46,482 bases of DNA from Minisyncoccota bacterium (GCA_041653495.1 JBAZFF010000003.1:1-46482); one strand, 5' to 3'. Positions 2,130 to 41,158 are shown, counted from the stretch's first letter. The notes: generated from the sequence alone by a model not told the origin. Made by a program: numbers and translations.

Positions 2130-2510
2130 ATGATAGAATTGACTGTTACGAAGGCTTTTGAATTTGACTCAGCCCATCATCTACCTTATTACGAAGGAAG
2201 GTGCAAAAACCCTCACGGTCATCGTTGGCGGCTTGAGGTCACTGTCTGGGGGATTTTACAGGGTGAAGGTCCCAAACAAGGGATGGTTGTTGATTTTGTT
2301 GATCTCAAGAAGGTAGTGAATGAGAAGGTGATTGATGTTCTCGATCACCAAGATATTAACGGATTGATTCCTAACCCCACTGCCGAAAACATGATCCGGT
2401 GGATTGCTTATCAACTGAACGATTTAGGTTGTTCGCCTATTGTTTCTTGTTGCCAGCTTCGGTTATGGGAGACTCCGGATTCTTGCGTGACGTGGCGGGT
2501 GGTCAAATGA
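2130..2510 (+). CDS. queD: 6-carboxy-5,6,7,8-tetrahydropterin synthase (QueD, T-fold)
   Basis: 'FEFDSAHHL' and 'CKNPHGHRW' (Cys-x3-His-Gly-His) are the QueD/PTPS zinc and catalytic motifs. The 126-aa size fits. RBS GGAGAAGG precedes the start. Confidence 0.9.
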   Translation: MIELTVTKAFEFDSAHHLPYYEGRCKNPHGHRWRLEVTVWGILQGEGPKQGMVVDFVDLKKVVNEKVIDVLDHQDINGLIPNPTAENMIRWIAYQLNDLGCSPIVSCCQLRLWETPDSCVTWRVVK

Positions 2511-3148
2511 AAATCAATTCAATATTTCAAAGCATCAACGGTGAAGTCAATGCTTTCCACCAAGGCAGCCTTTGCACGTTTATCCGTTTTCAAGGTTGCC
2601 CCCTTTCTTGCCGGTATTGCGATACCAAATATGCCCAAGATCCAAAGGGAGGCAAAGACATGACTTCGGAAGAGGTTATTGAAGAGGTCGGGAGATTAGG
2701 CAATCACAATATTACCATTACCGGCGGCGAGCCTCTATATCAGGAGCAGGCTTTGAAGAATGTGACAGCAGGACTTGAAGACAAAGGGTATGCCATTTCC
2801 GTTGAAACAAATGGTGCTCTTTATCTTCCCCCAAATATCAATGTTAGTTGGGTTGCCGATTGGAAAGGTCCTTCCAGTGGTATGAGATTTCAAATGGAGC
2901 TCGACAATTTTTTGCATATCAGTGAGAAAGATTTTGTGAAGTTTGTAATTGAAGACGAGGAAGATTTTTCCGATGCTTTGGAAGTGGTTCGTGCTTTGTC
3001 CCATCGAGGATGCAAATTTGCCTTTTCTCCTTCTTTTGAGAGTTTGGGTCCGGTGGATCTTGTGTCCTGGATGCAGCAGGAAAAGCAGTTGAAAGATTTA
3101 GGGGCAATTCTGAGTTGGCAGATTCATAAACTTATCAATGTCCAGTGA
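2507..3148 (+). CDS. queE: 7-carboxy-7-deazaguanine synthase (QueE, radical SAM)
   Basis: 'FIRFQGCPLSCRYCDTKY' is a CxxxCxxC radical SAM cluster in the QueE context. 'ITITGGEPL' is the SAM-binding GGE motif. The ATG at 2507 overlaps the queD stop (ATGA); the longer 2399 start is an overlap artefact. Confidence 0.85.
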   Translation: MKINSIFQSINGEVNAFHQGSLCTFIRFQGCPLSCRYCDTKYAQDPKGGKDMTSEEVIEEVGRLGNHNITITGGEPLYQEQALKNVTAGLEDKGYAISVETNGALYLPPNINVSWVADWKGPSSGMRFQMELDNFLHISEKDFVKFVIEDEEDFSDALEVVRALSHRGCKFAFSPSFESLGPVDLVSWMQQEKQLKDLGAILSWQIHKLINVQ

Positions 3149-3158
3149 AGGAGGGAAG

Positions 3159-3578
3159 ATGAAAATTATTCTTAATGGCCAGTCTTTTGAGTTCTTTCAG
3201 GAAGTTGACATGTTGCGAGCATTGATCCTTTTCAATTCAAATCAGCTGTCTTATCAGCCGGTAGAAGGTGCCAAAGAGAATGTTCTCGGCATCACAGACA
3301 TGATGTATCAATTTATCAAAAGCAATTCAGACGAGGTTAAGGTTGCCAATAAGGTCAAAAGGCGGGAGCTTCAATCCCTTATGCGTCGCATCTCGATATT
3401 CCAGAGGTTCTTCCGAAAGGTCGAAGACCGAGAAACCCTTATTTCGAGGGTCTTCGATTTTCTCCTCGCTCTTGATGGATTGAGCACCCTGCCTGGTTTT
3501 GGATTTTCTAACAGGTTCAAAGACAGGCTGAAAGGAAACGCTGAAAAAATAAGTTTGAGGAAAGTTCATTCTTTTTAG
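3159..3578 (+). CDS. hypothetical protein
   Basis: ATG at 3159 is preceded by GAAGGAGGGAAG. The ORF is clean but has no recognisable motif. It sits inside the deazaguanine island. Confidence 0.5.
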   Translation: MKIILNGQSFEFFQEVDMLRALILFNSNQLSYQPVEGAKENVLGITDMMYQFIKSNSDEVKVANKVKRRELQSLMRRISIFQRFFRKVEDRETLISRVFDFLLALDGLSTLPGFGFSNRFKDRLKGNAEKISLRKVHSF

Positions 3579-3583
3579 CCAGA

Positions 3584-3605
3584 ATTGGTTAAACCAGTGT
3601 ATAAT
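3584..3605 (+). promoter_or_regulatory. promoter-like motif copy 3 (ATTGGTTAAACCAGTG-TATAAT)
   Basis: More diverged copy of the repeated motif, 55 nt upstream of the ATG at 3660. Confidence 0.5.
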
Positions 3606-3659
3606 AGAATATCAGGGATAGGTTCAATTCCACAAACAAAAGGAAGAAAGGAGAACATC

Positions 3660-4202
3660 ATGGAAAAGGTTACAAAGGAAGAGTTGCTTGCAGCGGCGAA
3701 GGCTTTAAACGAGACGGGATTGTCTACGATCAAAGTGAAAACGGTGGCGATCAAAGAAGAGGATCTCAAAATCCTCTTTATCAAGGCCTGCGAAGCTGTA
3801 CCGGAGGACAAAGAGGATCAGTTGCCTGACGATCCGATTTGCAATGTTTATAACGGGCTGATTGCCGAAGGAGAAGCGGCTGAGGCCGAGAAAAAGAAGG
3901 CTGAGAAATCCAAGGCGAAAGAGAAGCCCGAATCGGGCAAAAAGGACAAGGCCAAAGACGCGGCGCCGGCCTCGGCAAAGAAACCTGCGAAGGAGAAAAA
4001 AGAGAAGGCATCCGTTTCGGAACGGTCGGAAAAGAAATTCGGAAAGTTCAAGGTGGCCGCAGATCTCTTCAAAGAAGGAAAATCAGAAGCCGTCATCGTT
4101 GCCAAGGTTGCCAAAGGGCTGATGGATGATGGCCGGGATGAAGCCGCCGCTTCCTATCGGGCCAAAGAAATTTACAAAATCGTCAAAACCATTCTCGGGT
4201 AA
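3660..4202 (+). CDS. Lys/Ala/Glu-rich (histone H1-like low-complexity) protein
   Basis: ATG at 3660 follows GAAAGGAGAA. The central tract 'AEAEKKKAEKSKAKEKPESGKKDKAKDAAPASAKKPAKEKKEK' is highly basic, so DNA binding is plausible. It has its own promoter motif and a downstream hairpin. Confidence 0.55.
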   Translation: MEKVTKEELLAAAKALNETGLSTIKVKTVAIKEEDLKILFIKACEAVPEDKEDQLPDDPICNVYNGLIAEGEAAEAEKKKAEKSKAKEKPESGKKDKAKDAAPASAKKPAKEKKEKASVSERSEKKFGKFKVAADLFKEGKSEAVIVAKVAKGLMDDGRDEAAASYRAKEIYKIVKTILG

Positions 4203-4223
4203 CAATCACTGGACCGGCGCCAA

Positions 4224-4256
4224 GGATCAGAAGAGGTCATTTTGCTCTTCTGATCC
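4224..4256 (+). terminator. 12-bp perfect hairpin (GGATCAGAAGAG/CTCTTCTGATCC), terminator-like
   Basis: Perfect 12-bp stem with a 9-nt loop, 20 nt after the stop at 4202. No clear U-tract follows (TGTGATAGG), so it could be an intrinsic terminator or a processing/stability hairpin. Confidence 0.5.
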
Positions 4257-4277
4257 TGTGATAGGAAGGATTTATAA

Positions 4278-4862
4278 ATGCAAGATCTGAAATTTCTTGA
4301 AGGAGCAGCAAAGGAGTTCCTTATCGCTATTGGTGAGGATCTCGACAGGGAAGGGCTTCTTGATACCCCAAAGAGAATGGCTAAGATGTGGAAAGAGATG
4401 TTCTATGGTTATGACCCAAAGCAAAAGCCAAAGGTCACTGTCTTTCCTAACGGGAAAGATGGCATCGTCTACGACGAAATGATCACTGATGAGGGATATT
4501 TCTATTCCTTTTGTGAACATCACTCGGTCACTTTTTTTGGAAATTTCTTTTTTGGGTATATCCCTGGGGCCAATGTTATTGGCATCAGCAAGATCTCTCG
4601 AATCGTTGATTATTATGCCGCGAGGCTTCAGGTCCAGGAGCGGCTTGTCCTCGATGTTGTGAACGATCTTGACAATATTCTCAAACCAAAAGGATGCGGG
4701 CTTGTAATGAAAGGCAGACACCTCTGCAAAGAAATGAGAGGTGTGAAGAAGAGGGATACCAGCACGACTACCACGGCGTTGCGAGGCTGTTTCCAGAACG
4801 ATATCGCGACAAGAACAGAATTTCTCGGGAGGGTGCAAAGTGAGAACCTACGTCGTTATTAG
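4278..4862 (+). CDS. folE: GTP cyclohydrolase I (FolE)
   Basis: 'GLLDTPKRMAKMW' and 'SFCEHH' are hallmark FolE type I motifs, and 'LQVQERL' is also present. Size is 194 aa. Confidence 0.9.
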   Translation: MQDLKFLEGAAKEFLIAIGEDLDREGLLDTPKRMAKMWKEMFYGYDPKQKPKVTVFPNGKDGIVYDEMITDEGYFYSFCEHHSVTFFGNFFFGYIPGANVIGISKISRIVDYYAARLQVQERLVLDVVNDLDNILKPKGCGLVMKGRHLCKEMRGVKKRDTSTTTTALRGCFQNDIATRTEFLGRVQSENLRRY

Positions 4863-5166
4863 GACCAGTTTCGAGGCAAATCATTGCTGGCCAGAATGCC
4901 CTTATCCCGAAGTTTCTTTTCTCAAGTTATCCCATCGCCATAAGTTTTTTGTCGAAATGAAATGGGAGACAACGGAGGACAGGCAAAAGGAATTTCTTAT
5001 GATGAAGAAAAAGGTTGATTCATTCTTGGTGAAAGAATGGAATGGCCAAGATTTGTTTTCTTTATCATGCGAAGTAATGGCGGAGCAGCTGGCATTGTAT
5101 TTTGATGCCAGTTTTGTATCTGTTTTCGAAGACAATGAAAATGGAGCGGAATACCATGCGATATGA
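4840..5166 (+). CDS. QueD/PTPS-like T-fold paralogue (divergent)
   Basis: 'SFEANHCWPEC...LSHRHKFFVEMKWE' mirrors the QueD layout (F-x-A-x-H ... H-x-H followed by a beta strand) but lacks the canonical Cys-x3-HGH. GTG start overlaps the folE end. Assignment is tentative. Confidence 0.45.
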   Translation: MRTYVVIRTSFEANHCWPECPYPEVSFLKLSHRHKFFVEMKWETTEDRQKEFLMMKKKVDSFLVKEWNGQDLFSLSCEVMAEQLALYFDASFVSVFEDNENGAEYHAI

Positions 5167-7324
5167 TGTCGTGATTATTGACCCTTCGAGTTTGGAAGTG
5201 GTAAGGAGTAGTTTCTGCTACCTTCCATATCTTCTGTTTTCTTATTTCAAATCAAGGGGCAAGGACGTTCTGCTTCTCGAAGATTATTCATGTGCAGATA
5301 TCGGAGAGCTTCCTGATGCAGAAAAATACCTCGTCGGTTTGTGGTCTTATCCTCAGGTTGATGCTTGTCTTGTTCTTGATAAGATTCTTCCAAAACCTGC
5401 AAAGTTTTTTGGATATGAGCCTTTGGTCGAAAGTTTGAGATTGCCGAAGTTCATTCCTTCCAATGATATGATTTACGAGGGTCTTGAAAATTGTGTTCGT
5501 TATTATGATCAGTTCAAGTACCTTCTTCTGTCCGATTCGGATATGCACATGGCTAAATATAGCGGCCTGGTGTATCCTTTGTTCACATCTTATGGGTGCG
5601 TTAATAAATGTTTGACCGGGGATACAATCATACATACTGTTGACGGAGATTTTCCTATTCAGTCTTTATCAGGGAAGAAAGGAGTCAAGGTTCTTTCGTG
5701 CAATCTTGAGACCTATGAGCTTTTTTATACAGATGTCAGAAATATCAGAAAAACTGCCAATAATTCGGGAATTGTAAGGGTACATTTCGACGACGGCTCC
5801 CATATAGATTGTACCCCCGATCATAAATTTAAGGTTTTCAAGAATACTAATCAGCACACAAAAAATAGTTGTGAGAAAGATGTCGAGGCAAACGACTTGC
5901 TTCCGGGGCAAAGTGTTAGGGCGGTTGGTTATGCTCGGTCCCCAAATGGCAGGACTTATCTTCGAGGTAATAGATATCTTGGAATGGCAAGGTCGGTTCT
6001 TGTTATGGAGTCTATTTTGGGTAGGAAATTAATAACCGACGAAGTGGTGCATCATAAAGATGGTAAGCCCGGGAACGATTTTCCATCTAATTTGATATTG
6101 ACAGATAAAAGGAATCATATTCCTGATTATCATCCAGAAATAGCGGAAAGAATGAAGAGAGATAATCCAGCAAAAAACATGACTCTTGAATGGAGAGAAA
6201 AGATAAGGACGGGTAACACTGGAAAAGTTCGGAGTGAAGAGTCTAAGCTTCGTTATCGACAATCAAGATTAGGAGACAAAAATCCAAATTGGAAGGGAGG
6301 GAAGTATGCAGAAAATCATAGAGTTTCGAAGATAGAACATCTTCCTCACAAGGAAGATGTTTATTGTATGGAAGTTCCAACTACGGAATGGTTTTATGCC
6401 AATAAAGTTTTGGTTCATAATTGCAAGTTCTGTCCTGTTGCTGTGAATTGTAAGGGAGATAGGGTAGTTCTCCCTGTCGAAAGGGTATGCGAGATACTCG
6501 ATTACTGCGAAGCCGAAGGAATGAAGAACATCCATTTCGCGGACGAGGATTTTTTCTTCGATACCAAACGGGCAGAGGAAATTCTTAATCATACCCGAGG
6601 CAAGGGCTTCCAGTATATCGCCTTGGGAACAGCAGGCATGGTTCTCAAATTTGTCGAGGATGTCGGTGCAGATTTTCTTCAAGAGACAGGAATGAAGGTA
6701 ATCGAGATAGGTCTTGAATCTGCCGATCTTTCTTTGAACAAGAAAATGGGGAAAGTCGGGAAGGGCGGTTCAAACCGGTATGAGGTATTGGCAGAAGCTG
6801 TTAAAGGCAAGGTCGATATCTTTTGGCTGACGATGACCTTTTTTCCCGGCGAGACAATAACCTCTCAAAGAGCCACCGGGTTATTCCTCGAAAAATACGG
6901 AGCGAAGTTTGGAGAAATGTACCCAAGGATTCAGACCAACTCTTCTGTTGGCGGACTTGGTCAGTTCTTTCAAGCCTATGCAGGGACTTGGGATAAAGAA
7001 GATCTTGAAGAAGAAGGTATGGTTTTGTCTGATCGGCCAATGAGACTGATGCCAAGTTTTGTTCCAAATTCGTTTCTTAACAGCCCGATAAACAAAATTC
7101 GCCCTATTCGAGAAGATGAGAAAGTTTGGTATCGGTTATACAAAATAAGTGACGATCTCATTGATACTTTTTTTGATGAGATAGGTCCTGTATCTATTGG
7201 TGCCGACTCAGGTCCGATATATTGTGATGTCGGAGATATTTTCGATATGTTGACCTTAGATTTCCCGGATCAGGATGTCTGTTTCTTTTTCGCTTTATCA
7301 GCAAGGCTGGGGGTGATCGGATGA
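5156..7324 (+). CDS. B12-binding-domain-type (class B-like) radical SAM enzyme, interrupted by an HNH intein
   Basis: The N-terminus 'VVIIDPS...LPYLLFSYFKSRGKDVLLLED...YLVGLWSY' resembles the Rossmann-like B12-binding domain. After conceptual splicing, the exteins restore 'SYGCVNK|CKFCPV', a CxxxCxxC motif. 'IEIGLESADLSLNKKMGK' is typical of the radical SAM core. The ATG at 5156 overlaps the previous stop. Confidence 0.85.
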   Translation: MRYDVVIIDPSSLEVVRSSFCYLPYLLFSYFKSRGKDVLLLEDYSCADIGELPDAEKYLVGLWSYPQVDACLVLDKILPKPAKFFGYEPLVESLRLPKFIPSNDMIYEGLENCVRYYDQFKYLLLSDSDMHMAKYSGLVYPLFTSYGCVNKCLTGDTIIHTVDGDFPIQSLSGKKGVKVLSCNLETYELFYTDVRNIRKTANNSGIVRVHFDDGSHIDCTPDHKFKVFKNTNQHTKNSCEKDVEANDLLPGQSVRAVGYARSPNGRTYLRGNRYLGMARSVLVMESILGRKLITDEVVHHKDGKPGNDFPSNLILTDKRNHIPDYHPEIAERMKRDNPAKNMTLEWREKIRTGNTGKVRSEESKLRYRQSRLGDKNPNWKGGKYAENHRVSKIEHLPHKEDVYCMEVPTTEWFYANKVLVHNCKFCPVAVNCKGDRVVLPVERVCEILDYCEAEGMKNIHFADEDFFFDTKRAEEILNHTRGKGFQYIALGTAGMVLKFVEDVGADFLQETGMKVIEIGLESADLSLNKKMGKVGKGGSNRYEVLAEAVKGKVDIFWLTMTFFPGETITSQRATGLFLEKYGAKFGEMYPRIQTNSSVGGLGQFFQAYAGTWDKEDLEEEGMVLSDRPMRLMPSFVPNSFLNSPINKIRPIREDEKVWYRLYKISDDLIDTFFDEIGPVSIGADSGPIYCDVGDIFDMLTLDFPDQDVCFFFALSARLGVIG
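5609..6421 (+). mobile_element. intein (271 aa) with HNH homing-endonuclease module
   Basis: Starts 'CLTGDTIIH' (block A), has 'TPDHKF' (block B), 'VVHHKDGKPGNDFPSNLILTDKRNH' (HNH) and NUMOD-like repeats 'NPAKNM..NPNWKGG'. It ends 'VYCMEV...VLVHN' followed by Cys+1. It is in frame and sits inside the Fe-S motif. Confidence 0.88.
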
Positions 7325-8337
7325 TTATCAATGTCCCGATCGAGAGCCTGGAGGAAAGGTACAGTAAGCAATGGAACGAATGGTTTCCAAGGGTGTTCGA
7401 AGAATTGGACGAGCTATATTTCTGCGTTTACCCAAAGCCTCTTTCCGATAAGATCAGGGACGGTTCTTTTCTCGATGTTTGTGCGACCAATTATTTTAAG
7501 GCGAATCAGCTTGCTGGTTTGTGTCAAGCTCTTTATAACGGCAGAATCCATTCGGGAGACGTGATTTTTTTTCACGACCTTTGGTTCCCAGGGTTAGAGA
7601 TGCTTGCCTATATCCGCGATGGGCTTGGTATTGATTTTAAGATTTGTGGGATCCTTCATGCAGGGACATACGATCCTTTTGATTTCGTTTCAAAGAAAGG
7701 GATGGGTCGTTGGGGTAAGAATCTTGAGGAAAGCTGGTTCTCGTTTGTTGACGAAATTTTCGTTGCCACTCGTTATCACCGAGACCTTATTTATCAGAGT
7801 AGGAGGTGCAGGGCTCTAATTACTGTGACCGGGCTTCCAATCTATTATCAAGATATTCGAGGAAACAAATATTACGAGAAAGAGAATATCGTTGTATTCC
7901 CCCATCGGTTGGACTCAGAAAAACAGCCTGCCCTTTTTGACCAACTTGCCAATATTCTCCAAAAGAAATATCATGATTGGCAGTTTATTAAGACGAAAGA
8001 AGTTTGTGAAACTAAGCAACAATATTATGATCTCCTTGGCCGATCAAAGGTCGCTGTCTCCTTTGCTTTTCAAGAGACCTGGGGTATCGCTCAGCAGGAG
8101 GCATTGATATTTGGTTGCATCCCGATTGTCCCGAATCGTCTTTCCTATAGGGAGATGTACCCTGAAAGCTTGAAGTATGAGGATATGGATCAGTGCATCG
8201 AGCTTGTAGAAAGGGCGATGAAAGGAGACGAATTGCTTCAATTAGATTCTGATATCTTGTTTTGTAATTTGAAGGCAGCCGGAGAAGAGGCAATTCCCAA
8301 CATGGTGGAAAGGATGAGAAGATGGCAAAAGGCTTAA
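7321..8337 (+). CDS. GT-B fold glycosyltransferase (GT1/GT4-like)
   Basis: C-terminal domain 'VAVSFAFQETWGIAQQEALIFGCIPIVPN' contains the E-x7-E motif of retaining GT-B enzymes. Two-domain size of 338 aa. The start overlaps the radical SAM stop (ATGA). Confidence 0.6.
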   Translation: MIINVPIESLEERYSKQWNEWFPRVFEELDELYFCVYPKPLSDKIRDGSFLDVCATNYFKANQLAGLCQALYNGRIHSGDVIFFHDLWFPGLEMLAYIRDGLGIDFKICGILHAGTYDPFDFVSKKGMGRWGKNLEESWFSFVDEIFVATRYHRDLIYQSRRCRALITVTGLPIYYQDIRGNKYYEKENIVVFPHRLDSEKQPALFDQLANILQKKYHDWQFIKTKEVCETKQQYYDLLGRSKVAVSFAFQETWGIAQQEALIFGCIPIVPNRLSYREMYPESLKYEDMDQCIELVERAMKGDELLQLDSDILFCNLKAAGEEAIPNMVERMRRWQKA

Positions 8338-9296
8338 AGGCTAAAATGAGTCTATTCCTCGATTCGGGTGCCCCGTCTCTGTATAACGAATTAAGTAGGG
8401 GAGGCGGAACCAAAGGGAAGGCTGTCATGGGTTCGTTCTACGAGGATAGGAAGTTTGACGATTTTTCTTTCCTTGAATCCCAGCAGTACAAAGATCATAA
8501 AAAGAGGTATGTCGAATTTGTCAAAGCAAATGAGAAGTACCTTGATGTCTATGTTAACCTTGATATCATCCATAATGCAGAAGAGACTTGGAAGAACCAG
8601 TTGGAGCTCGAAGCTGCCGGTATTCATCCTCTTCCTGTATTTCATCTTGGTTCTGATTTGAAATGGCTTCGGATGCTACTTGATAAAGGGTATAAGTACA
8701 TCGCAATGGGCGGGCTTATCCCGGACCCTCCGTCTGTAATCTGTCCTGCCCTTGATAAGATATGGGGAGAAATCCTTACAGACAAAAAAGGTTTTCCGAA
8801 GGTCAAAGTTCATGGATTCGGGATTACATCCCCAAAGGTTCTTGTCAGGTATCCCTGGTTCAGTGTTGACAGTTCCTCTTGGTTGAAGATTGGGGTATAT
8901 GGATCGATATTGCTCCCCAAAAAATCCTTTGGGAAATTTGTTTATGATTCCTCACCTTCCCAAGTTTTTGTTTCTTCCCGTTCAGGGTGCAGGAACGAAG
9001 ATAGCGGCAGGCATTATGATAGTTTGTCTAAATTTGAACAGGAAACAGTAAAGGATTATATCCTTTCTCTCGGCGTCCCTTTTGGAAAAAGCTATTTCAA
9101 AGAGGTAAAGGAAGGGTATGTTCTGAAAGAAGGAGAGAGGGAAGCATCAAAAGGACAGGTCGAGGTTATAGAAGAGAATGGTGTTTGCACGGATTTTCAT
9201 AAGAGGAACAAAGTGAATTTGTACTACTATCTCCAGTTAGGTGCTTCTGTCCCAGAATGGCCGTGGTCTTTTAAGAGAAGAGGATTTGGATTATGA
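8322..9296 (+). CDS. dpdA: DpdA-like DNA guanine transglycosylase (TGT superfamily)
   Basis: 'FLDSGAPS' parallels the TGT catalytic 'DSGGFQ', 'YIAMGGLIP' parallels 'AIGGLSVGE', and 'VHGFGITSP' parallels 'LMGVGTP'. 'SVDSSSW' is also present. The tRNA-TGT zinc motif is absent. Context with folE/queD/queE supports the call. The ATG at 8346 is an alternative start. Confidence 0.7.
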   Translation: MAKGLKAKMSLFLDSGAPSLYNELSRGGGTKGKAVMGSFYEDRKFDDFSFLESQQYKDHKKRYVEFVKANEKYLDVYVNLDIIHNAEETWKNQLELEAAGIHPLPVFHLGSDLKWLRMLLDKGYKYIAMGGLIPDPPSVICPALDKIWGEILTDKKGFPKVKVHGFGITSPKVLVRYPWFSVDSSSWLKIGVYGSILLPKKSFGKFVYDSSPSQVFVSSRSGCRNEDSGRHYDSLSKFEQETVKDYILSLGVPFGKSYFKEVKEGYVLKEGEREASKGQVEVIEENGVCTDFHKRNKVNLYYYLQLGASVPEWPWSFKRRGFGL

Positions 9297-9499
9297 AATT
9301 ATATATCGCTGGCCATAATGATGGTCTTGGCAGTGAGGAAGGCGGAGTTGCAGGAAGGGAGGTTTCGCCAGAAGTTGAAGCTTTGACCTACGCAAACGGA
9401 CTTGGGTTGGAATACTGCCGATTGATTTCTTTCTATTATCCAAGAATGGTTGAAGAAAACATATCTTTGAAAAAGGAGATTATGAATGGCAAAAAATAG
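9293..9499 (+). CDS. hypothetical small protein
   Basis: 68-aa ORF translationally coupled to both neighbours. No motif. Confidence 0.35.
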   Translation: MKLYIAGHNDGLGSEEGGVAGREVSPEVEALTYANGLGLEYCRLISFYYPRMVEENISLKKEIMNGKK

Positions 9500-10537: not shown

Positions 10538-13500
10538 ATGTTTTGTCACCTTCATGTTCATACAGAACATTCTCTGCTGGACGGGTATGGTTCTGCGAAA
10601 AAATATGTGGATAAAGCAAAGCAGTTAGGGTTTGAGTATCTCGGCATCTCTGATCACAGCAATGTAGACGGAGTGATTCAATTCCAAAAGGAATGCAAGA
10701 AGGCCGGTATCAAATCAATTATTGGCTGCGAATTATATTATGTCCCCGATATGGAGATTAAGGAAAAAAGGGAGAAGAGGTATCACCTTACTGTTCTTGT
10801 GAAAAACGAAACAGGGTTTCAGAATCTTTGCAAGATTCTCACCTTGGCAAATTTGAAGGGTTTCTATTACAAGCCAAGGGCAGATTTCAATTCAATTATA
10901 GAGATGAGTAACGGTCTTGTTTTCCTCTCCGGTTGTTCTGCAAGCGCATTGCGGGATCAAAAGGGCGAAGAGTTTTTGATGAATCTCTCAGATAAAACCA
11001 AAGAGGTCTATCTTGAAGTCATGCCCCATGCGATAGAGCCGCAATACGAGGTTAATAATATCTGTCTTGACATTGCCAAAGATACAGGTCTCAAATTGGT
11101 TGCTACCAACGACGCGCACTATATAGAGCAAAGGGACAATGTAATTCAAGAGATTCTGCTCGCAATCCAGACCAAAGCCTTATGGTCTGATCAAAGCAGA
11201 TTTCGTTTTTCAATGGACACCTTGTACCTTAAAACAGAAGGTGAGATGCGTAGGGCTTTCAAGGAGCAAAACTTGTTGTCCACTCCTGAGTATCTCGAAG
11301 CAATCAACAACACAATTGAAGTGGCTGAAAAATGTAGCGGATTTGAAATTAAAAAGAAGGACATTTGGTTGCCAGAAGTGGATACCTCTTCTACGAATGG
11401 AGAAAAACTTAGCGAAGAAGATTACATCAGGTCATTATGTTGCGAAGGTTATTATGATCTATTCGGCAAAGAATTGTCCGGTCATTATCAGCAGCGGTTT
11501 GAAGAAGAACTTAATTTGATTAAATCCAAGAAATTCATCCGGTATTTTTTAGTGGTGCATGAGCTTGTCTGTTGGTGTAAAGAAAACGACATCTTCACAG
11601 GTCCGGGACGAGGATCTGTTGGAGGGTGCCTTATTGCCTATCTTCTCGGTATTACCAAAATAGATCCGATTAAGCATGGTCTGCTTTTTTCTCGGTTCAT
11701 AAATGAAGACAGAATTGATTATCCTGATATTGATATTGATTTCGAGGACACAAAAAGGGACCTTATCCGGCGGCATTTGGAAGATCGGTACGGATCGAAT
11801 AATATTTCGTCTGTTTCCACTTTTCAGAAAATGAAAGGAAGAATGACGATCAAAGATGTCGGCAGGGTTTTTGATATTCCTTATAAGGAGCTTGATGAAT
11901 TTTCCAAGACGATTATTGACGAGGATAACAATGGCGATTCCTCTATTATCACGGCTGCGAAGGGTCACCCGTTTGCAGAAAAATATCCCGAGATAATAGA
12001 TTATGCTTCGAGGCTCGAAGGTACTTTAAGGGGTACGGGACAGCATGCCGCAGCATTGATTGTTTCTGCCGAGGATCTTACCCAAGGGACAAGAGGTAAT
12101 TTGTCCATGAGAAAAGATCATGAAGCGATAAATTGGGATAAGGATGATGCAGAATTTTTAGGCTTGATGAAGCTGGATGTCCTTGCACTCAAGACTTTGT
12201 CTATTTTAAGTGAAGCGAGAAAGCAAGTCCAAAAAGCCAAAGGTGTTGATATCATATATGAAGATTTGCCTTTGAATGACAAGAGGGTTTTTGAAATGCT
12301 TTCGAAGGGAGAGACTGTGGGTATCTTTCAGTTCAATATGTGGGCGACTACAGATATCTGCAAGAAGATGGGAATTGAAGATTTCAATATGATGGTTGCT
12401 GCTCTTGCTCTTGTCCGGCCTGGTGTTTCTGATTCAGGGATGAAAGATGAATTCATCAGGAGAAAAAAAGGCAGGCGGTGGAAGCGGAAACATGATTTGT
12501 ACGAAGAGATTACCAAAGACACTTTCGGTATTATCATCTACCAAGAACAGGTGATGAAGGTCATATATCAAATGGCAGGTCTTCCCTACTCGGTAGCAGA
12601 CAAGATTAGGAAGATTATTTCAAAGAAAAGAGATGTTAAGGAGTTTGAGCAGTATAAGCAAATGTTTTTTGATGGTTGCCGTAAGCAAAAGACTATGTCA
12701 AGGCAAGAGGCCCAAGATTTCTGGGAGATGTTAGAAAAACATGCAAGTTACTCATTTAACGAATCCCACTCTTGTGCTTATTCAGTATTGGCCTATCATT
12801 GTGCTTACATGAAATTGAAATATCCAGCGGAGTTTATTTGCGCCAATTTGATTCATGCAGCCGATACTAAGAAGGAAGAATTGATTGAAGAGGCAAAAAG
12901 GCTGGGTTTGCACCTTGTTCTGCCCCGGGTTGGTGTGTCAGATGCCCATCTGTGGGTTGTCAGGGGTGATAAAATCTATGTTCCTTTTATAGAAATTAAA
13001 GGTGTCGGTGAGAAAACGGCTGAGGACTTTGCTAATTATACCGGGTTGATCGTTCCTGTGAAAAATGATCAGGATGTTGTTGAAAAAGAAGAGCCTTTGG
13101 GAAAGGTTGATAAAAGTAGACCCAAGGGATTCTTCTTTCAAGATGAAGAAAAGGAAAAGATTCCAAAGACAAGATTGGGGAAAATAACGAAAAAACAGAA
13201 GGAAACCAAAGTCGGTAAGATTCTGAGAGAGATTGGGGCTCTTGGTAACGAGCCTGAAGGAGATCTGTCGAAGTATTTCTCTTTTGATGTTTCTGCATTT
13301 GGTGGCATATCAAAGAAATATCCAAAGCTTCAGGAATTTATTGGTCAGACGACGAACGATATCTCTGAAGTGGCCAGACTTGAAATTTCATCTTTTGATG
13401 ATTATAGTGCCGTTATCAAATCTGCCAAGTACAGGAATAGAAGAATCTCCGGCTGTGAAGAATGCGAATTGAGAAAACAAGCGAAGCAGCCAGTTCTCTC

Positions 13501-15019
13501 ATCGTGTGGAAAATATAATATTCCTATTATTGGGGAAGCTCCGGGTTGTATTTCTGGCGATTCTATGATTGAGGTTGCCTTTCGAGATAAAACAAAATTT
13601 CCGAAAGGGATACCAATAAAAGATTTGGAAGGAGAGAAAGATTTTTATGTTTATTCTTTTGATATCCATAAACATATGATGGTTATCGATAAAGTGAAAA
13701 GAGTTTGGCAAACAGGGAGAAAGAAAATTTACGAAGTAACTTATGAATGGTGGATGTTTACGAAAGAAGGTAAAAGAGAGAAAAAAGTTGAAAGATTGAG
13801 AGTGACGGCTAATCATATGTTTTTATTGAAAAAACCAACTTCTGGAAAACATGATCCTTTTAAAGGGATAAATAACGAAAGGGAGATTTATTTATCAATT
13901 GATCAGGGATTAAAGGTTGGGCATAGTTTACAGCCTTTTTATCGTATGAATTTGGATTATGGTTATATAAGGACTGCCGATGAACAATATCGGAAAGAAG
14001 CTCAGGTTTTATTGGAATTTAAATTAAAGCGCAAATTGAAAGTAGATGGTCGTGGTAAAGGAGGAAATTGTCATCATAAAAATGAGAATAAATTAGATGA
14101 TACTTGGGATAATTTAGACTTTTTAACAATATCTAAACACAGATCTCTTCATAGTACGGGGGATAAGAATGCCATGAAAAATCCTGAGATAAAGGCAAGG
14201 CATTTAACTATTATGAGATCAGAAGGATACCGTTCTAATATGAGTAAGATAATGAAGAGAGTGTTAAGGAACCCCCAGACCTATCAGAAGAGATTAGAAG
14301 GGATAAAAAAGTCGAACGATTCCAGATCGGCCACAGTTAAAAGGTTATATGATGATCCCTTACATTATTATAGATATTTATTAGGGAAGATGAATTCTAA
14401 AAGTTTTAATGTCAAAGATACATGGGTAGAAGAAAAGTTTAAAAATAGATTTCCTAATGATTTATTTCCGCCTATTGAAAATCATAAGATTATAGATATC
14501 TGTTATATAGGAGAAGATTCTGTTTATGATATGGAAACAGCAAGGTTCCATAACTTTGCTGTTAATGGAGTTTTTGTTCATAATAGTAGTGAAGATGAGA
14601 AGGCCAAAGGATTCATTGGCAAAGCAGGAGATTTGCTTTGGGATTCTCTGGACAAGTATAAATTGGTTCGAGAGTTTTTTCATGTTTGCAATGCCTGTCG
14701 CTGTTTTCCTGGTACGATCAAGACCCCAAAGCCAGAACATATTGCAGCTTGTTCTCACTGGCTTGATGATGAACTTAAGAATCTCGATGCAAAGATTTGT
14801 CTTGTTCTTGGTAACGTAGCTCTTAGGTACATCAAAGGAGTTGATGGTGGTATCACTTCTCTTTGTGGGACAACAGAATGGTCGGAGGAAAAGAATCTTT
14901 GGGTATGCTATGGATTGCATCCTTCGGCGGTCTTGAGAGATCCAAGTAAGCGAGAAAAATTCAATGAAGGAATTAAGAATTTTTCCGATAAGATAAAATT
15001 ATTGGGAGGCTTGAAATGA
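10538..15019 (+). CDS. dnaE: DNA polymerase III alpha (DnaE) fused to a C-terminal family-4 UDG-like domain, interrupted by an HNH intein
   Basis: PHP domain 'HLHVHTEHSLLDG', palm 'GPGRGSVGGCLIAYLLGITKIDPIKHGLLFSRFINEDRIDYPDIDIDFE' and HhH 'IKGVGEKTAEDF'. The C-terminus has 'CEECELRKQ...IIGEAPG|SSEDEKAKGFIGKAGDLL' and 'GLHPSAVLR', which are UDG family 4 motifs A and B. Confidence 0.9.
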   Translation: MFCHLHVHTEHSLLDGYGSAKKYVDKAKQLGFEYLGISDHSNVDGVIQFQKECKKAGIKSIIGCELYYVPDMEIKEKREKRYHLTVLVKNETGFQNLCKILTLANLKGFYYKPRADFNSIIEMSNGLVFLSGCSASALRDQKGEEFLMNLSDKTKEVYLEVMPHAIEPQYEVNNICLDIAKDTGLKLVATNDAHYIEQRDNVIQEILLAIQTKALWSDQSRFRFSMDTLYLKTEGEMRRAFKEQNLLSTPEYLEAINNTIEVAEKCSGFEIKKKDIWLPEVDTSSTNGEKLSEEDYIRSLCCEGYYDLFGKELSGHYQQRFEEELNLIKSKKFIRYFLVVHELVCWCKENDIFTGPGRGSVGGCLIAYLLGITKIDPIKHGLLFSRFINEDRIDYPDIDIDFEDTKRDLIRRHLEDRYGSNNISSVSTFQKMKGRMTIKDVGRVFDIPYKELDEFSKTIIDEDNNGDSSIITAAKGHPFAEKYPEIIDYASRLEGTLRGTGQHAAALIVSAEDLTQGTRGNLSMRKDHEAINWDKDDAEFLGLMKLDVLALKTLSILSEARKQVQKAKGVDIIYEDLPLNDKRVFEMLSKGETVGIFQFNMWATTDICKKMGIEDFNMMVAALALVRPGVSDSGMKDEFIRRKKGRRWKRKHDLYEEITKDTFGIIIYQEQVMKVIYQMAGLPYSVADKIRKIISKKRDVKEFEQYKQMFFDGCRKQKTMSRQEAQDFWEMLEKHASYSFNESHSCAYSVLAYHCAYMKLKYPAEFICANLIHAADTKKEELIEEAKRLGLHLVLPRVGVSDAHLWVVRGDKIYVPFIEIKGVGEKTAEDFANYTGLIVPVKNDQDVVEKEEPLGKVDKSRPKGFFFQDEEKEKIPKTRLGKITKKQKETKVGKILREIGALGNEPEGDLSKYFSFDVSAFGGISKKYPKLQEFIGQTTNDISEVARLEISSFDDYSAVIKSAKYRNRRISGCEECELRKQAKQPVLSSCGKYNIPIIGEAPGCISGDSMIEVAFRDKTKFPKGIPIKDLEGEKDFYVYSFDIHKHMMVIDKVKRVWQTGRKKIYEVTYEWWMFTKEGKREKKVERLRVTANHMFLLKKPTSGKHDPFKGINNEREIYLSIDQGLKVGHSLQPFYRMNLDYGYIRTADEQYRKEAQVLLEFKLKRKLKVDGRGKGGNCHHKNENKLDDTWDNLDFLTISKHRSLHSTGDKNAMKNPEIKARHLTIMRSEGYRSNMSKIMKRVLRNPQTYQKRLEGIKKSNDSRSATVKRLYDDPLHYYRYLLGKMNSKSFNVKDTWVEEKFKNRFPNDLFPPIENHKIIDICYIGEDSVYDMETARFHNFAVNGVFVHNSSEDEKAKGFIGKAGDLLWDSLDKYKLVREFFHVCNACRCFPGTIKTPKPEHIAACSHWLDDELKNLDAKICLVLGNVALRYIKGVDGGITSLCGTTEWSEEKNLWVCYGLHPSAVLRDPSKREKFNEGIKNFSDKIKLLGGLK
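13547..14584 (+). mobile_element. intein (346 aa) with HNH homing-endonuclease module
   Basis: Starts 'CISGDSMIEV', has 'TANHMF' (block B), 'CHHKNENKLDDTWDNLDFLTISKHRSLH' (HNH) and NUMOD-like repeats. It ends 'VYDMET...VFVHN' followed by Ser+1. It is inserted right after the GEAPG motif, and the segment is visibly more AT-rich than the host gene. Confidence 0.88.
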
Positions 15020-29239: not shown

Positions 29240-30394
29240 ATGAAGAAAGTAATTGTTACCGAAAGAATCCCTATAAAAATGTGGCTGGGTGATATTGAAC
29301 AAGGAGCATTAAACCAAGGTTTGAATCTTGCCAATCTACCTTTTGCCTTCAAGCACATTGCCATCATGCCGGATGCCCATCAGGGCTATGGAATGCCCAT
29401 TGGAGGTGTTCTGGCGACTCGCAGGGCGGTTATCCCAAACGCCGTGGGCGTTGACATTGGCTGTGGTATGTGCGCGGTAAGGACTGACTTAACAGACATC
29501 AGCCAGGAAACACTCAAGAAAATAATGGAGAGAATCCGCGAAGCTGTCCCGGTCGGTTTTAAACACCATGCAGAACCACAAGAAAACGACTTTTACCTTC
29601 CCGGTCAGTTCGGCCCGATTATCGCCCAGGAAGAAGGGAACATTGACTACCAGATAGGAACTCTTGGTGGTGGAAACCATTTCATTGAAATTCAGAAAGG
29701 TTCTGATGGGAATTTTTGGATTATGATTCATTCCGGAAGCCGCAACCTTGGCAAGAAGGTGGCTGATTTCTACAACAAGATAGCTGTTAAGCTGAACGAA
29801 CAGTGGCATTCTTCAGTTCCTAAGCAATGGGAGCTTGCCTTTCTGCCGATGGATACGCCGGAATACAAGGGATACCTTCAGGATATGCAGATATGTGTGG
29901 ACTTTGCCCTTGCAAACCGGAAACTCATGATGGACAGAATAACGGCGATATTTTATACTGAAACACTTTGCGATTTCGAGTCGATGATTAATATTGCTCA
30001 CAACTATGCAAAGATGGAAAATCATTTTGGAGAGAATGTGCTCGTACACAGGAAGGGTGCTACATCAGCAAAGGTCGGGCAGATAGGAATCATACCAGGA
30101 TCACAGGGGACAAAGAGCTACGTCGTAGAAGGCATGGGAAATCCAGAAAGTTTTCAAAGCTGTTCGCATGGAGCCGGAAGGTGCATGGGAAGAAAAGATG
30201 CCACCAGAAGGCTTGATCTTAAGACAGAAATCAAGAGACTTGACGATCAGGGCATTATTCATGGCATCAGAAATATAGACGATCTCGACGAGGCGGCGGG
30301 GGCATATAAGGATATTGCCGTTGTCATGGAAAATCAGAAGGATCTCGTTAAGATTCTTGTTGAACTTAAACCGGTGGCTGTTATTAAAGGATAA
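29240..30394 (+). CDS. rtcB: RtcB RNA ligase (3'-phosphate/5'-hydroxyl)
   Basis: 'MPDAHQGYGMPIGGV', 'VGVDIGCGM', 'GGGNHFIEIQ', 'HSGSRNLG', 'HRKGAT', 'IPGSQGTKSY' and 'SCSHGAGR' form the complete set of RtcB metal- and GMP-His motifs. Confidence 0.92.
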   Translation: MKKVIVTERIPIKMWLGDIEQGALNQGLNLANLPFAFKHIAIMPDAHQGYGMPIGGVLATRRAVIPNAVGVDIGCGMCAVRTDLTDISQETLKKIMERIREAVPVGFKHHAEPQENDFYLPGQFGPIIAQEEGNIDYQIGTLGGGNHFIEIQKGSDGNFWIMIHSGSRNLGKKVADFYNKIAVKLNEQWHSSVPKQWELAFLPMDTPEYKGYLQDMQICVDFALANRKLMMDRITAIFYTETLCDFESMINIAHNYAKMENHFGENVLVHRKGATSAKVGQIGIIPGSQGTKSYVVEGMGNPESFQSCSHGAGRCMGRKDATRRLDLKTEIKRLDDQGIIHGIRNIDDLDEAAGAYKDIAVVMENQKDLVKILVELKPVAVIKG

Positions 30395-31678: not shown

Positions 31679-32008
31679 ATGTCGGATCAGGAAAAAGAAT
31701 TCGATAAGTCCAAGGGCGCAAAGTTTGACGTCGGAAAGCAAGGCTGGTATCCGATGCCTTTGGTCATTCTCGAGCCTCTTGCAGATGTATTTTTGGCTGG
31801 AGAAAAGAAGTATGAGTGCTTCAATTGCTTGAAGCCGTTTGAAGATTCAGACCGAAGATTTTGGGATGCAACAATGCGGCACCTTGCGGCGTGTCAGATA
31901 GATCCTTTATCGAAAGATACAGAGACAGGATGTTATCATGCGGCGCAGGTAGCGTTCAATATCCTTTTGCGGCTTCATAGTGCTTTAAGGATAAAGGAGG
32001 AAAAATGA
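31679..32008 (+). CDS. DUF5664-like protein (dATP/dGTP diphosphohydrolase N-terminal-like domain), tentative
   Basis: 'KFDVGKQGWYPMPLVILEPLADVFLAGEKKY' resembles the 'K.D.GK..w.L.P...l..va.v..fGa.KY' signature. The call is from memory of the family only. Confidence 0.4.
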   Translation: MSDQEKEFDKSKGAKFDVGKQGWYPMPLVILEPLADVFLAGEKKYECFNCLKPFEDSDRRFWDATMRHLAACQIDPLSKDTETGCYHAAQVAFNILLRLHSALRIKEEK

Positions 32009-32905: not shown

Positions 32906-33157
32906 ATGCTTTATTTTTCATATGATCCAAACGGATTAGGTCTTTCCTATCACGATTCGGCAGACGAGGCAAAGGCAGCCGCCGAAAATGCGATTGAACA
33001 GGAAAGGGAAAATTGTGACGATGATCCAGGATGGTCAGAAAATGTAAATGAAATTTGCTGGGGAATAGTTCAGGAAGTAGCAACAGAGGGTGAGCGCAAG
33101 CCTGACGAAACAGGAAAACATGATTATATCGTTGATTACACTTTGAAGGAAGCGTGA
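32906..33157 (+). CDS. hypothetical acidic protein
   Basis: 83 aa, no motif. Confidence 0.45.
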   Translation: MLYFSYDPNGLGLSYHDSADEAKAAAENAIEQERENCDDDPGWSENVNEICWGIVQEVATEGERKPDETGKHDYIVDYTLKEA

Positions 33158-33164
33158 TAATTTG

Positions 33165-33241
33165 CGGGGTGTGGCGGAGTCTGGTACCGCACTGGCTTTG
33201 GGAGCCGGCTATCGCAGGTTCAAATCCCACCATCCCGACCA
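33165..33241 (+). tRNA. tRNA-Pro (anticodon UGG)-like, CCA encoded
   Basis: Manual cloverleaf: acceptor CGGGGTG/CATCCCG (7 bp, one G-U), D-stem GCGG/CCGC with loop AGTCTGGTA, anticodon stem CTGGC/GCCGG, and loop TT-TGG-GA. T-loop is TTCAAAT, discriminator A, then CCA. The T-stem GCAGG/CCCAC has two A-C/C-A mismatches. Confidence 0.6.
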
Positions 33242-33261
33242 TAAAAAAGAGGTTTAAAGAA

Positions 33262-33450
33262 ATGAGCAATGAAATTTGTCCGACTTGCGGAAGATCATTA
33301 AACAACAATGTTCCAAAGAGAATATGTTTTCTTTGCGGAAAGCAAATAACAAGACATCATAAATGGCAGATAGTAGACAGTAAAATTCAACATCGTTGTT
33401 GTGATAATCCAGGTAATTACCCAAAAGGAGAAATGAAATGCGACTTGTAA
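33262..33450 (+). CDS. small zinc-ribbon protein
   Basis: CPTC...CFLC pairs. The ATG at 33262 follows the tRNA; the longer ORF-track start at 33154 runs through the tRNA. Confidence 0.45.
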   Translation: MSNEICPTCGRSLNNNVPKRICFLCGKQITRHHKWQIVDSKIQHRCCDNPGNYPKGEMKCDL

Positions 33451-34328
33451 AAGCAAGTTATCAGATTATGGCGATGTCGGGCTTCCCGGAGCTTCCTTAC
33501 AGCTATGCAGATTCGGACAGGCTCATTGAAGCGGCAGGCAGAACTTGTTACAAATCCGAAGACAAGATTACGGAAACATCTGCAAAGCCTTTTGTCGAAA
33601 TGCTTGAGAAGCGAACGCACTTCGCCATGATTGAACATTCATGGGAAGTGCGGTTATATTTTGGGGCTGAATTGCCAAAATATCCTTCTCCGTTCTTGAG
33701 ATCATTTTCTTTTTACGGCGATTCTATCGTCGTTGGAAATAGAACGGCTTTTACCGAGGTTGAGCAGAGAGAAGACTTGCCCAAAGGGAATTATTGGCTT
33801 TGGTCCGAATCGGCAATTCGTGCTTTTTCGGAACATTACAGCCATCATTTGATTTTGGCCATGACAGTGAAATTCATCACGGATCGTGGTGTTTCTCACG
33901 AACTTGTCCGGCATCGTCCTTGCTCCTTCGCCCAGGAAAGTACCCGATATTGTAATTATAAGGACGGTGTTGCTTTCATCATTCCTCCATGGTTGGATTT
34001 GCCTGAAGGTGAATTCAATAATCAGGATTTGATTGAGTTCAAGGCGCAAAGGCATCTTAACGATATTGAACGGCGATGGCTTGCAAATCGTTTTCGAGAC
34101 GAAGAGAATTATGTCGATATGTTGAAATTCGGCTGGAAGTCAGAGCAAGCAAGAGGCGAGCTTCCAACCTGCTTAAAAACAGAGATATGGGTAACTGCAC
34201 CTGTCTCTCAATGGCGCTATATGTTCTATCGCAGAGACGACAAAGCGGTCCATGAGCAGATGCGAGAATTGATGAATCCTCTTCATGAGGAAGTCAAAGA
34301 GAAGTATCCTGTTTACTTTGGAGGATAG
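33438..34328 (+). CDS. thyX: FAD-dependent thymidylate synthase ThyX
   Basis: 'ELVRHRPCSFAQESTRYC' is the ThyX signature RHRxxSxxxxSxRY. 296 aa. Confidence 0.9.
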   Translation: MRLVKASYQIMAMSGFPELPYSYADSDRLIEAAGRTCYKSEDKITETSAKPFVEMLEKRTHFAMIEHSWEVRLYFGAELPKYPSPFLRSFSFYGDSIVVGNRTAFTEVEQREDLPKGNYWLWSESAIRAFSEHYSHHLILAMTVKFITDRGVSHELVRHRPCSFAQESTRYCNYKDGVAFIIPPWLDLPEGEFNNQDLIEFKAQRHLNDIERRWLANRFRDEENYVDMLKFGWKSEQARGELPTCLKTEIWVTAPVSQWRYMFYRRDDKAVHEQMRELMNPLHEEVKEKYPVYFGG

Positions 34329-35758: not shown

Positions 35759-35878
35759 TTGAAAACTGCGATTGTTATTGCTGCTATCAGTCTTGGTCTC
35801 TCCTTGTTTGTTTTGATAGCCCTGGTGTTTTCTATTATGAGGATTGATCTTATCATCAAGAAAGGACCAAAGAATTGA
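35759..35878 (+). CDS. possible 39-aa hydrophobic peptide
   Basis: The TTG at 35759 lies 8 nt after GAAGGAG. It encodes '(M)KTAIVIAAISLGLSLFVLIALVFSIMRIDLIIKKGPKN', one transmembrane helix. Below the ORF-track cutoff and uses a non-ATG start. Confidence 0.3.
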   Translation: MKTAIVIAAISLGLSLFVLIALVFSIMRIDLIIKKGPKN

Positions 35879-41093: not shown

Positions 41094-41158
41094 CGATTCC
41101 CCGTTATTATTGTCAATAAGAATAACTCCTGACACTAAAAAATAATGGGGATTTGTCA

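Follow-up and report, generated by a model that had tools for sequence, protein, structure and literature searches.

Gene content of the island

The stretch of DNA considered here comprises 46,482 nt from a Minisyncoccota bacterium assembly (GCA_041653495.1, contig JBAZFF010000003.1:1-46482; in the following "the window", which sets the scope of all results on this DNA) and carries a run of ten open reading frames (ORFs) that combines genes for formation and DNA insertion of a 7-deazaguanine base with genes for a radical S-adenosylmethionine (SAM) enzyme and a glycosyltransferase. The gene for a DnaB-like helicase (552-2096) precedes this island, and a clamp gene and the gene for a DnaE-type polymerase (10538-15019) follow it; adjacent ORFs of the run show overlaps of 4-23 nt or gaps of 10-81 nt. 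The window is phage-like, with every credible gene on the + strand and a positive GC skew along its full length. The contig stops inside a gene about 2 kb past the portal gene and thus represents a partial genome; a search for terminal repeats on the contig found none, so that completeness of the genome cannot be claimed. Scans of the island for promoters and terminators gave nothing above the shuffled expectation, and a blastn comparison of the island with 50,697 phage records returned a 134-nt fragment of QueD as the sole match. All genes that had been listed for this block in an earlier note, made from the sequence alone, are present on the + strand with stops and starts overlapping or nearly abutting, and all motifs quoted there occur in the window. 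The features of the island are the following:

2130..2510, + strand: QueD, 6-carboxytetrahydropterin (CPH4) synthase (CKNPHGH motif; PF01242, 5.4e-32; TIGR03367, 92.5 bits, cutoff 89.25)
2504..3148, + strand: QueE, 7-carboxy-7-deazaguanine (CDG) synthase (radical SAM motif CPLSCRYC; phrog_2076, 6e-35)
3159..3578, + strand: conserved protein of 139 aa, no assigned function (no family match)
3660..4202, + strand: protein of 180 aa with a K/A/E-rich central stretch, no assigned function (no credible family match)
4278..4862, + strand: FolE, GTP cyclohydrolase I (CEHH motif; PF01227, 3.7e-56; TIGR00063, 193.3 bits, cutoff 181.6)
4840..5166, + strand: DpdL, QueD paralogue and proposed CDG decarboxylase (signature LKLSHRHKF; weak PTPS match, 0.0058; phrog_17812, 1e-16)
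5156..5608, + strand: N-extein of the radical SAM enzyme (predicted Rossmann-like domain at the N-terminus and first Cys of CxxxCxxC, …SYGCVNK)
5609..6421, + strand: intein of 271 aa with HNH homing-endonuclease domain (CLTGDT with Cys1, block B TPDH, terminal VLVHN, +1 Cys)
6422..7324, + strand: C-extein of the radical SAM enzyme (CKFCPV with second and third Cys, TIM-barrel core, C-terminal domain)
7321..8337, + strand: GT4-like GT-B glycosyltransferase (EX7E motif E252…E260; R196/E200/K201 motif)
8322..9296, + strand: DpdA-type DNA-guanine transglycosylase of the tRNA-guanine transglycosylase (TGT) superfamily (phrog_887, 5.6e-37; motifs FLDSGA, AMGGL, HGFG, SVDSS)
9293..9499, + strand: small ORF of 68 aa, resembling by eye the C-terminal extension of related DpdAs

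For QueE, the top NCBIfam matches are all QueE models, each of them under its cutoff. The two proteins with no assigned function have counterparts in the related contig L011, where an ORF between QueD and QueE is 26% identical to the 3159..3578 protein (E 5e-12) and the N-terminal region of the 3660..4202 protein is kept (33% identity, E 3e-6). Among + strand ORFs of at least 45 aa in the window, QueC, QueF and ArcS gave no Pfam match, and no + strand ORF of the window matched PF06508-type (QueC) or related families. Gat-QueC of phage FritzHoffmann as six-frame tblastn query against the window also returned nothing (E > 3). The absence of QueC, QueF and ArcS from the 46 kb, as claimed before, is therefore borne out by the Pfam scan and for QueC in addition by tblastn. 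As neither QueC nor Gat-QueC was found, the preQ0-dependent pathways, i.e., those leading to dPreQ0 (2'-deoxy-7-cyano-7-deazaguanine), dADG (2'-deoxy-7-amido-7-deazaguanine), dG+ (2'-deoxyarchaeosine), dPreQ1 (2'-deoxy-7-aminomethyl-7-deazaguanine) and their derivatives, are not matched in the window.

Phages with FolE, QueD, QueE and DpdA that are devoid of QueC have been reported to carry DpdL, in which a signature LxxxHRHxF replaces the CxxxHGH of QueD and which, in Cellulophaga phage phiST, has been proposed as the CDG decarboxylase on the route to 2'-deoxy-7-deazaguanine (dDG; Cui, Hutinet et al., NAR 2023, PMC10516641). Within the 46 kb of partial genome this pattern of FolE, QueD, QueE and DpdA in the absence of QueC is seen. 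The protein encoded at 4840..5166 reads LKLSHRHKF, an exact fit to the signature, is 37% identical over 108 aa to phiST DpdL CGPG_00067 (BLASTP, E 5e-20) and is scored at 1.3e-44 by a local DpdL hidden Markov model. In the alignment, the HRH motif is common to the DpdLs of the window, phiST, ACP17, PA5oct and metagenomic sources. This protein, a second T-fold protein that had been taken as an unassigned tailoring enzyme, is thus identified as DpdL by its signature and by its identity to the phiST protein, and the novelty that had been claimed for a QueC-less island with a T-fold paralogue does not stand, given that the configuration was published in 2023 (PMC10516641).

DpdL is kept and co-translated in every relative examined. 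In Chryseobacterium phage MA9V-3 (L001 7461-8342) and Vibrio phage Bakedbeans (L003 7221-8372) the DpdL domain constitutes the C-terminal part of larger proteins of 293 and 383 aa, respectively. Two candidates for DpdL in cultured phages were rejected, namely gp122 of ACP17, where DpdL is gp125, and ORF 225 of Phosso, which aligned poorly and where the true DpdL is the ORF directly upstream of the glycosyltransferase.

By tblastn, the DpdA of the window shares 33-38% identity with DpdAs annotated in Nonagvirus and Pseudomonas siphophages, such that its closest relatives by this search are siphophage DpdA1-type enzymes, and D81, H164, S181 and D183 are invariant over ten aligned DpdAs. It is not assigned to DpdA3, the subfamily of phiST and CP220 that replaces G completely, as BLASTP against phiST CGPG_00065 gave a best E of 14, nor does it fit the bacterial DpdA model NF041059 (17.6 bits vs. 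a cutoff of 200). Related DpdAs of 411-414 aa from L009 and L013 end in …WRLYIAGENPHG…, and the small ORF at 9293..9499 begins MKLYIAGHNDG…, a likeness noted by eye which suggests that this ORF is a detached DpdA tail and that DpdA is split into two genes here. Considered together, these features make it well supported at the sequence level that the block is a DpdL-type operon by which an uncultured tailed phage modifies its DNA with 7-deazaguanine independently of QueC.

The radical SAM enzyme and the glycosyltransferase between DpdL and DpdA

The six neighbourhoods of radical SAM homologues all feature the arrangement (FolE)–DpdL–radical SAM–glycosyltransferase–DpdA adjoining a polymerase gene, and the order from DpdL to DpdA is found in phages with a DnaE polymerase fused to uracil-DNA glycosylase (DnaE-UDG; L009-L014) as well as in phages with a PolA-UDG polymerase (L015-L017). 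QueC does not occur in the stretches retrieved around these radical SAM homologues. In L018 and L019, two further long contigs with a homologue of the glycosyltransferase, a SPASM/twitch radical SAM protein that is not homologous to that of the window is encoded between DpdL and the glycosyltransferase (7124-8011 and 6490-7236, respectively). The order is DpdL, SPASM/twitch radical SAM, glycosyltransferase and TGT-like gene in both cases; in L018 the SPASM/twitch gene is located directly upstream of the glycosyltransferase gene, and in L019, where small ORFs are interspersed, it is two small ORFs upstream. The SPASM/twitch enzyme looks like a non-orthologous replacement of the window-type radical SAM enzyme. 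All of the eight distinct metagenomic contexts examined keep both a radical SAM and a glycosyltransferase gene in the interval from DpdL to DpdA, and by this conserved order it is very likely that the two enzymes are part of the pathway, as had been assumed before. Among cultured phages, the glycosyltransferase family occurs inside DpdL clusters in six out of seven lineages (ACP17, the PA5oct group, Phosso, BUDD and X1, BCSR5, and BUCT-ZZ01). The family sizes suggest a nested distribution in the order DpdL (at least 7,997 clusters, a lower bound), glycosyltransferase (934) and radical SAM enzyme (177). What appears to be new here is the recurrent DpdL–radical SAM–glycosyltransferase–DpdA module, a variant that would extend the known DpdL pathway.

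The presence of a radical SAM enzyme at 5156..7324 had been recognized correctly, while the intein inside this ORF had been overlooked. The unspliced ORF encodes 722 aa, the spliced enzyme 451 aa. The intein is matched by PF14890 (64.3 bits, cutoff 35.8), TIGR01445, TIGR01443 and several HNH PHROGs, and it exhibits Cys1, a TxxH block B, a terminal His-Asn, a +1 nucleophile and absence from orthologues, the hallmarks of a class 1 intein. In an alignment with six intein-free homologues not a single residue falls into the 271 intein columns and the alignment is gapless up to K151; the homologues listed, window protein aside, have lengths of 358-525 aa and none is long enough for an intein. Excision joins GCVNK to CKFC, and the CxxxCxxC motif exists only in the spliced protein. 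The intein thus interrupts the loop that binds the Fe-S cluster, and activity of the enzyme requires splicing.

The spliced protein matches PF04055 (3.2e-14), while the Pfam B12-binding domain was not detected in it. Its homologues number 177; among those matching over the full length, the best share 40-60% identity and are close to it in size. The model of one homologue at 60% identity has a predicted local distance difference test score (pLDDT) of 95.5; in a Foldseek search with this model, ranks 1-16 are all taken by enzymes with a cobalamin-type Rossmann domain and a radical SAM core (AprD4, TsrM, CysS, MgmA, TokK, OxsB; template modelling (TM) scores 0.47-0.57), and a sequence-profile search of the radical SAM enzyme against PDB retrieved AprD4 (2e-11) and CysS (7e-7). 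On these grounds the label "class-B-like", attached to the enzyme in the earlier note, fits as a description of architecture. No match to the spliced protein was obtained by tblastn in the 50,697 phage records, so the enzyme is so far known from metagenomes only. In ACP17, gp123 was considered as a counterpart and rejected; it is a TGT-like DpdA.

Selfish elements recur in this module, as judged from the window, L015, L016, L018 and L019. The QueE of L015 (4978-6195) has 405 aa and a faint HINT match pointing to a possible intein, two inserted ORFs for GIY-YIG endonucleases separate the radical SAM from the glycosyltransferase gene in L016 (3771-4656), and inteins are also present in the PolB genes of L018 and the PolA gene of L019.

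The glycosyltransferase of the window scores 24.5 bits with Glycos_transf_1 (PF00534), below the gathering score of 26.4, and many of its close homologues do have a precomputed PF00534 match. The family comprises 934 homologues (protein clusters). The AlphaFold model (pLDDT 94.8) exhibits the GT-B fold with two Rossmann domains; its top Foldseek matches in PDB are retaining enzymes of the GT4 type, namely BshA (E 1e-11, TM 0.75), PglA, MshA and glycogen synthase, and among viral models the ACP17 glycosyltransferase reaches a TM score of 0.91 to the window enzyme at 38% identity. A sequence-profile search against PDB gave weak GT4 matches, and the T4 alpha- and beta-glucosyltransferases are absent from the 50 best structural matches in the PDB and viral libraries. 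Across 41 homologues, E252, E260 and R196 do not vary and E200 and K201 hardly do, the latter two being invariant in an alignment of 11 glycosyltransferase sequences; the Arg and Lys among them fit the residues that bind the diphosphate of the donor. The fold model and the invariant E252/E260 confirm the previous assignment as a GT-B glycosyltransferase with an E-x7-E motif, and from conserved residues and model the enzyme looks catalytically competent.

Some further genes were observed in the DpdL clusters of cultured phages. Xanthomonas phage BUDD (L008 6365-6859) encodes a 164-aa protein of the 3'-phosphoadenosine-5'-phosphosulfate (PAPS) reductase family within the glycosyltransferase/DpdL cluster. 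QueC falls in the same wider ATPase superfamily as PAPS reductase, and the BUDD protein might be a truncated QueC-like enzyme. Phosphoribosyltransferase genes are found beside the DpdL clusters of PA5oct (L006 9794-10758), BUCT-ZZ01 (L021 2069-2530) and phiST (L004 28218-28646), in PA5oct along with a fragment of an NAD-epimerase/dehydratase gene, whereas the window has neither phosphoribosyltransferase nor epimerase genes; in these three phages a nucleotide-level or sugar-nucleotide branch may exist.

Outside the island, the window encodes the polymerase located downstream:

10538-15019, + strand: DnaE-type Pol III alpha with PHP, NTPase and finger domains and, joined to its C-terminus, a family-4-like UDG

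A second intein of 346 aa with an HNH-like stretch (about 13547-14584) splits the UDG motif of this protein, inserted between GEAPG and SSEDE and running from C… to …VHN; its similarity to the intein of the radical SAM enzyme is marginal (22% identity, E 4e-4). The Pol III–UDG fusion occurs with the intein in L013 and L014 and without it in L009 and L010, and other contigs have PolA-UDG fusions. The portal protein (41153-44365; Phage_portal_3, 5e-107) continues at its C-terminus into a type IB topoisomerase domain (Topoisom_I, 6e-20, and Top1B_N_bact). Genes of nucleotide metabolism at 31679-32008, 33438-34328, 35875-36207 and 40453-40932 comprise a set of dATP/dGTP diphosphohydrolase N-terminal-like (PF18909), ThyX, "active DUF488-N3" and inorganic pyrophosphatase-like proteins. 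A dGTP-hydrolysing enzyme could be relevant to guanine replacement; a MazG-like gene belongs to the cluster of phiST. An RNA ligase, RtcB, is encoded at full length (29240-30394; PF01139, 2e-110), which suggests repair of tRNA cut by host anticodon nucleases. The ORF called at 33154-33450 is probably no gene because it overlaps with a tRNA-Pro (anticodon TGG, 33165-33241).

Proposed pathway and competing readings

By homology, FolE, QueD and QueE would convert GTP into CDG and DpdA would swap genomic guanine for a deazaguanine base; conversion of CDG into 7-deazaguanine by DpdL is the published candidate step in between. The radical SAM enzyme and the glycosyltransferase, which are translationally coupled between DpdL and DpdA, may decorate the deazaguanine. 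Such decoration could consist of a sugar derived from a host nucleotide sugar combined with radical C-alkylation of the pyrrole ring or tailoring of the sugar, the radical SAM enzyme acting either in C-methylation of the electron-rich pyrrole as in TsrM or on the sugar as in AprD4. It would most likely take place on the free base, before insertion by DpdA. Eukaryotic TGT inserts queuine, a base with a bulky C7 substituent, which makes a pre-decorated base conceivable as a DpdA substrate, and a weak hint at tailoring before insertion comes from the basic pI of DpdA (9.0), as opposed to the acidic values of about 5.2-5.4 for the glycosyltransferase, the radical SAM enzyme and DpdL. In this case a deazaguanine derivative beyond the eight known in DNA would be present in the virion; none of these eight bears a sugar, and we know of no natural glycosylated DNA purine.

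We put the probability at roughly 0.6 that this is a DpdL-type operon whose radical SAM enzyme and glycosyltransferase decorate deazaguanine beyond the known bases. The more specific and more general proposal that phages with DpdL–(radical SAM)–glycosyltransferase–DpdA, including ACP17 and PA5oct, contain an undescribed sugar-bearing 7-deazaguanine, possibly C-alkylated or radically sugar-tailored and preassembled before insertion, is tentative and falls somewhat short of even odds. A glycosylated or alkylated deazaguanine in DNA is plausible. Of the interpretation offered in the earlier note, a QueC-less pathway that branches at CDG and recruits accessory enzymes is retained; the option that it stops at CDG becomes unlikely in view of DpdL.

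Several points weigh against decoration of the base. The fold of the radical SAM enzyme does not reveal cobalamin binding, and its closest structure, AprD4, is a sugar diol dehydratase and not a methylase, the other Foldseek matches being C-methylases. To our knowledge, AprD4 does not use cobalamin. The glycosyltransferase scores just under the Pfam gathering score, its acceptor is not readable from sequence, and 7-deazaguanine has no obvious hydroxyl acceptor for a sugar. The absence of QueC covers 46 kb of a partial genome, and a distal QueC is possible. A distant homologue of the glycosyltransferase in Xanthomonas phage PhiXhv-15 (L022 4621-7855) has no deazaguanine genes nearby and adjoins GlmS and a BshB-like GlcNAc-malate deacetylase, a context that hints at a hexosamine donor for this wider group of glycosyltransferases or else at another system of glycosylation. 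The decarboxylase role of DpdL is a proposal, and expression of ACP17 DpdL together with DpdA in E. coli gave no dDG, on which the authors suggested that further enzymes may be needed (PMC10516641). Finally, phiST lacks this glycosyltransferase, has no second radical SAM enzyme annotated near its cluster and contains plain dDG; the additional enzymes are thus not needed for dDG.

A first alternative is that the operon makes only plain dDG as in phiST and that the additional enzymes aid in making or handling the base, e.g., by supporting decarboxylation or through a short-lived glycosylated intermediate, and leave nothing on the DNA. The presence of DpdL, the acidic nature of the tailoring enzymes, which fits small-molecule substrates, and the failed formation of dDG from DpdL and DpdA alone, which would leave room for helpers, all agree with it, as does the finding of 100% dDG in phiST DNA (PMC10516641). 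However, phiST achieves full replacement without this glycosyltransferase family, most DpdL clusters do without the additional enzymes (at least 7,997 vs. 934 and 177), and a nucleotide-sugar glycosyltransferase with invariant catalytic residues would be an odd helper in decarboxylation, so that we regard this possibility as rather unlikely. It appears distinctly less probable still that the radical SAM enzyme and the glycosyltransferase act on another target, be it a different DNA base, a protein, or a host envelope component or metabolite. Both enzymes have only generic family matches (Radical_SAM; GT4 near BshA, PglA and MshA), which would allow for such a target, and the PhiXhv-15 homologue beside GlmS and the deacetylase, away from deazaguanine genes, would be in line with it; yet the placement between DpdL and DpdA with overlapping codons is kept across differing polymerases and gene content, the six of seven cultured lineages hold the glycosyltransferase inside the deazaguanine cluster, and the window has only ThyX and no hydroxymethylase that would provide a pyrimidine acceptor.

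The least probable reading, and a very doubtful one, has the pathway stop at CDG, which DpdA would insert; the other enzymes would then decorate the resulting dCDG (2'-deoxy-7-carboxy-7-deazaguanine) in DNA, e.g., as a glycosyl ester. QueC is absent from the window, the carboxylate could serve as a sugar handle, and dCDG does exist at low level in the DNA of Sulfolobus virus STSV-2. Still, the identification of the T-fold protein as DpdL, the proposed CDG decarboxylase, makes a stop at CDG unlikely; this candidate CDG consumer is conserved and co-translated throughout the relatives, phiST DNA is free of detected CDG, and the acidic glycosyltransferase and radical SAM enzyme appear unlike DNA-binding enzymes. 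Occurrence of both dCDG and dDG in viral DNA has been reported before.

With regard to decoration of deazaguanine by the two enzymes, a literature search found, within the library searched, no paper that links this radical SAM enzyme or glycosyltransferase to deazaguanine DNA, and a glycosyltransferase is mentioned neither in Cui 2023 (PMC10516641) nor in Hutinet 2019. If true, it would provide the first glycosylated purine in any natural DNA. The DNA of PA5oct withstands restriction enzymes that have a G in the context GA or GG; its modified G is chemically unidentified (PMC12191111); the module may account for this modified G and for the failed reconstitution of dDG from ACP17 DpdL and DpdA. 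The combination of glycosyltransferase and DpdL is available in cultured phages, where mass spectrometry can test the proposal directly. Hypermodifications of phage DNA decide how well it withstands restriction enzymes, CRISPR and modification-dependent nucleases; they have also been a source of enzymes for biotechnology. In addition, the intein in the Fe-S cluster motif ties the activity of the radical SAM enzyme to protein splicing.

Comparison with known systems

Among characterized systems, the cluster of phiST (FolE, QueD, QueE, DpdL, DpdA3) resembles the island in being a QueC-less operon beside replication genes with the same FolE/QueD/QueE core and in its DpdL orthologue, which shares the LxxxHRHxF signature at 37% identity. 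It differs in that its DpdA3 shows no similarity to the DpdA1-type-like enzyme of the window and in the lack of this glycosyltransferase family and of an annotated second radical SAM enzyme near the cluster, which instead has the MazG-like gene and two small unique ORFs. The clusters of ACP17, PA5oct, Phosso, BUDD, BCSR5 and BUCT-ZZ01 share the glycosyltransferase family, located beside DpdL and a TGT-like DpdA and accompanied by QueE and FolE. In contrast to the window, no second radical SAM enzyme is seen in these clusters, the gene order is another one and the DpdAs, of 424-540 aa, are only about 17-20% identical to that of the window; PA5oct furthermore adds the phosphoribosyltransferase and the epimerase-like fragment.

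A sugar that is put on a modified base by a GT-B enzyme as the last layer is known from the glucosylated hydroxymethylcytosine of T4, where the acceptor is the hydroxymethyl group. Eukaryotic tRNA carries mannosyl- or galactosyl-queuosine, the base of which is a 7-deazaguanine derivative. There, the acceptor is a hydroxyl of the cyclopentenediol, whereas a hydroxyl-bearing precursor is not evident in the pathway of the window. In the tubercidin pathway, too, CDG is the branch point, QueC is absent and the carboxyl group at C7 is lost; this pathway differs in using a phosphoribosyltransferase and a UbiD-family decarboxylase on nucleotides, and it lacks a T-fold DpdL as well as DpdA and does not act on DNA. 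In huimycin and dapiramicin formation by actinomycetes, FolE, QueD and QueE make the 7-deazaguanine base as in the window, although these pathways include QueC (preQ0 core) and an O-methyltransferase, are devoid of DpdA, DpdL and the extra radical SAM enzyme, and yield a free metabolite. HuiG of the huimycin pathway (Pfam PF13439) has been proposed to glycosylate the 2-amino group (N2) with UDP-GlcNAc (PMC7439116); likened to the glycosyltransferase of the window by its proposed role, it offers a precedent for a sugar on a deazaguanine base.

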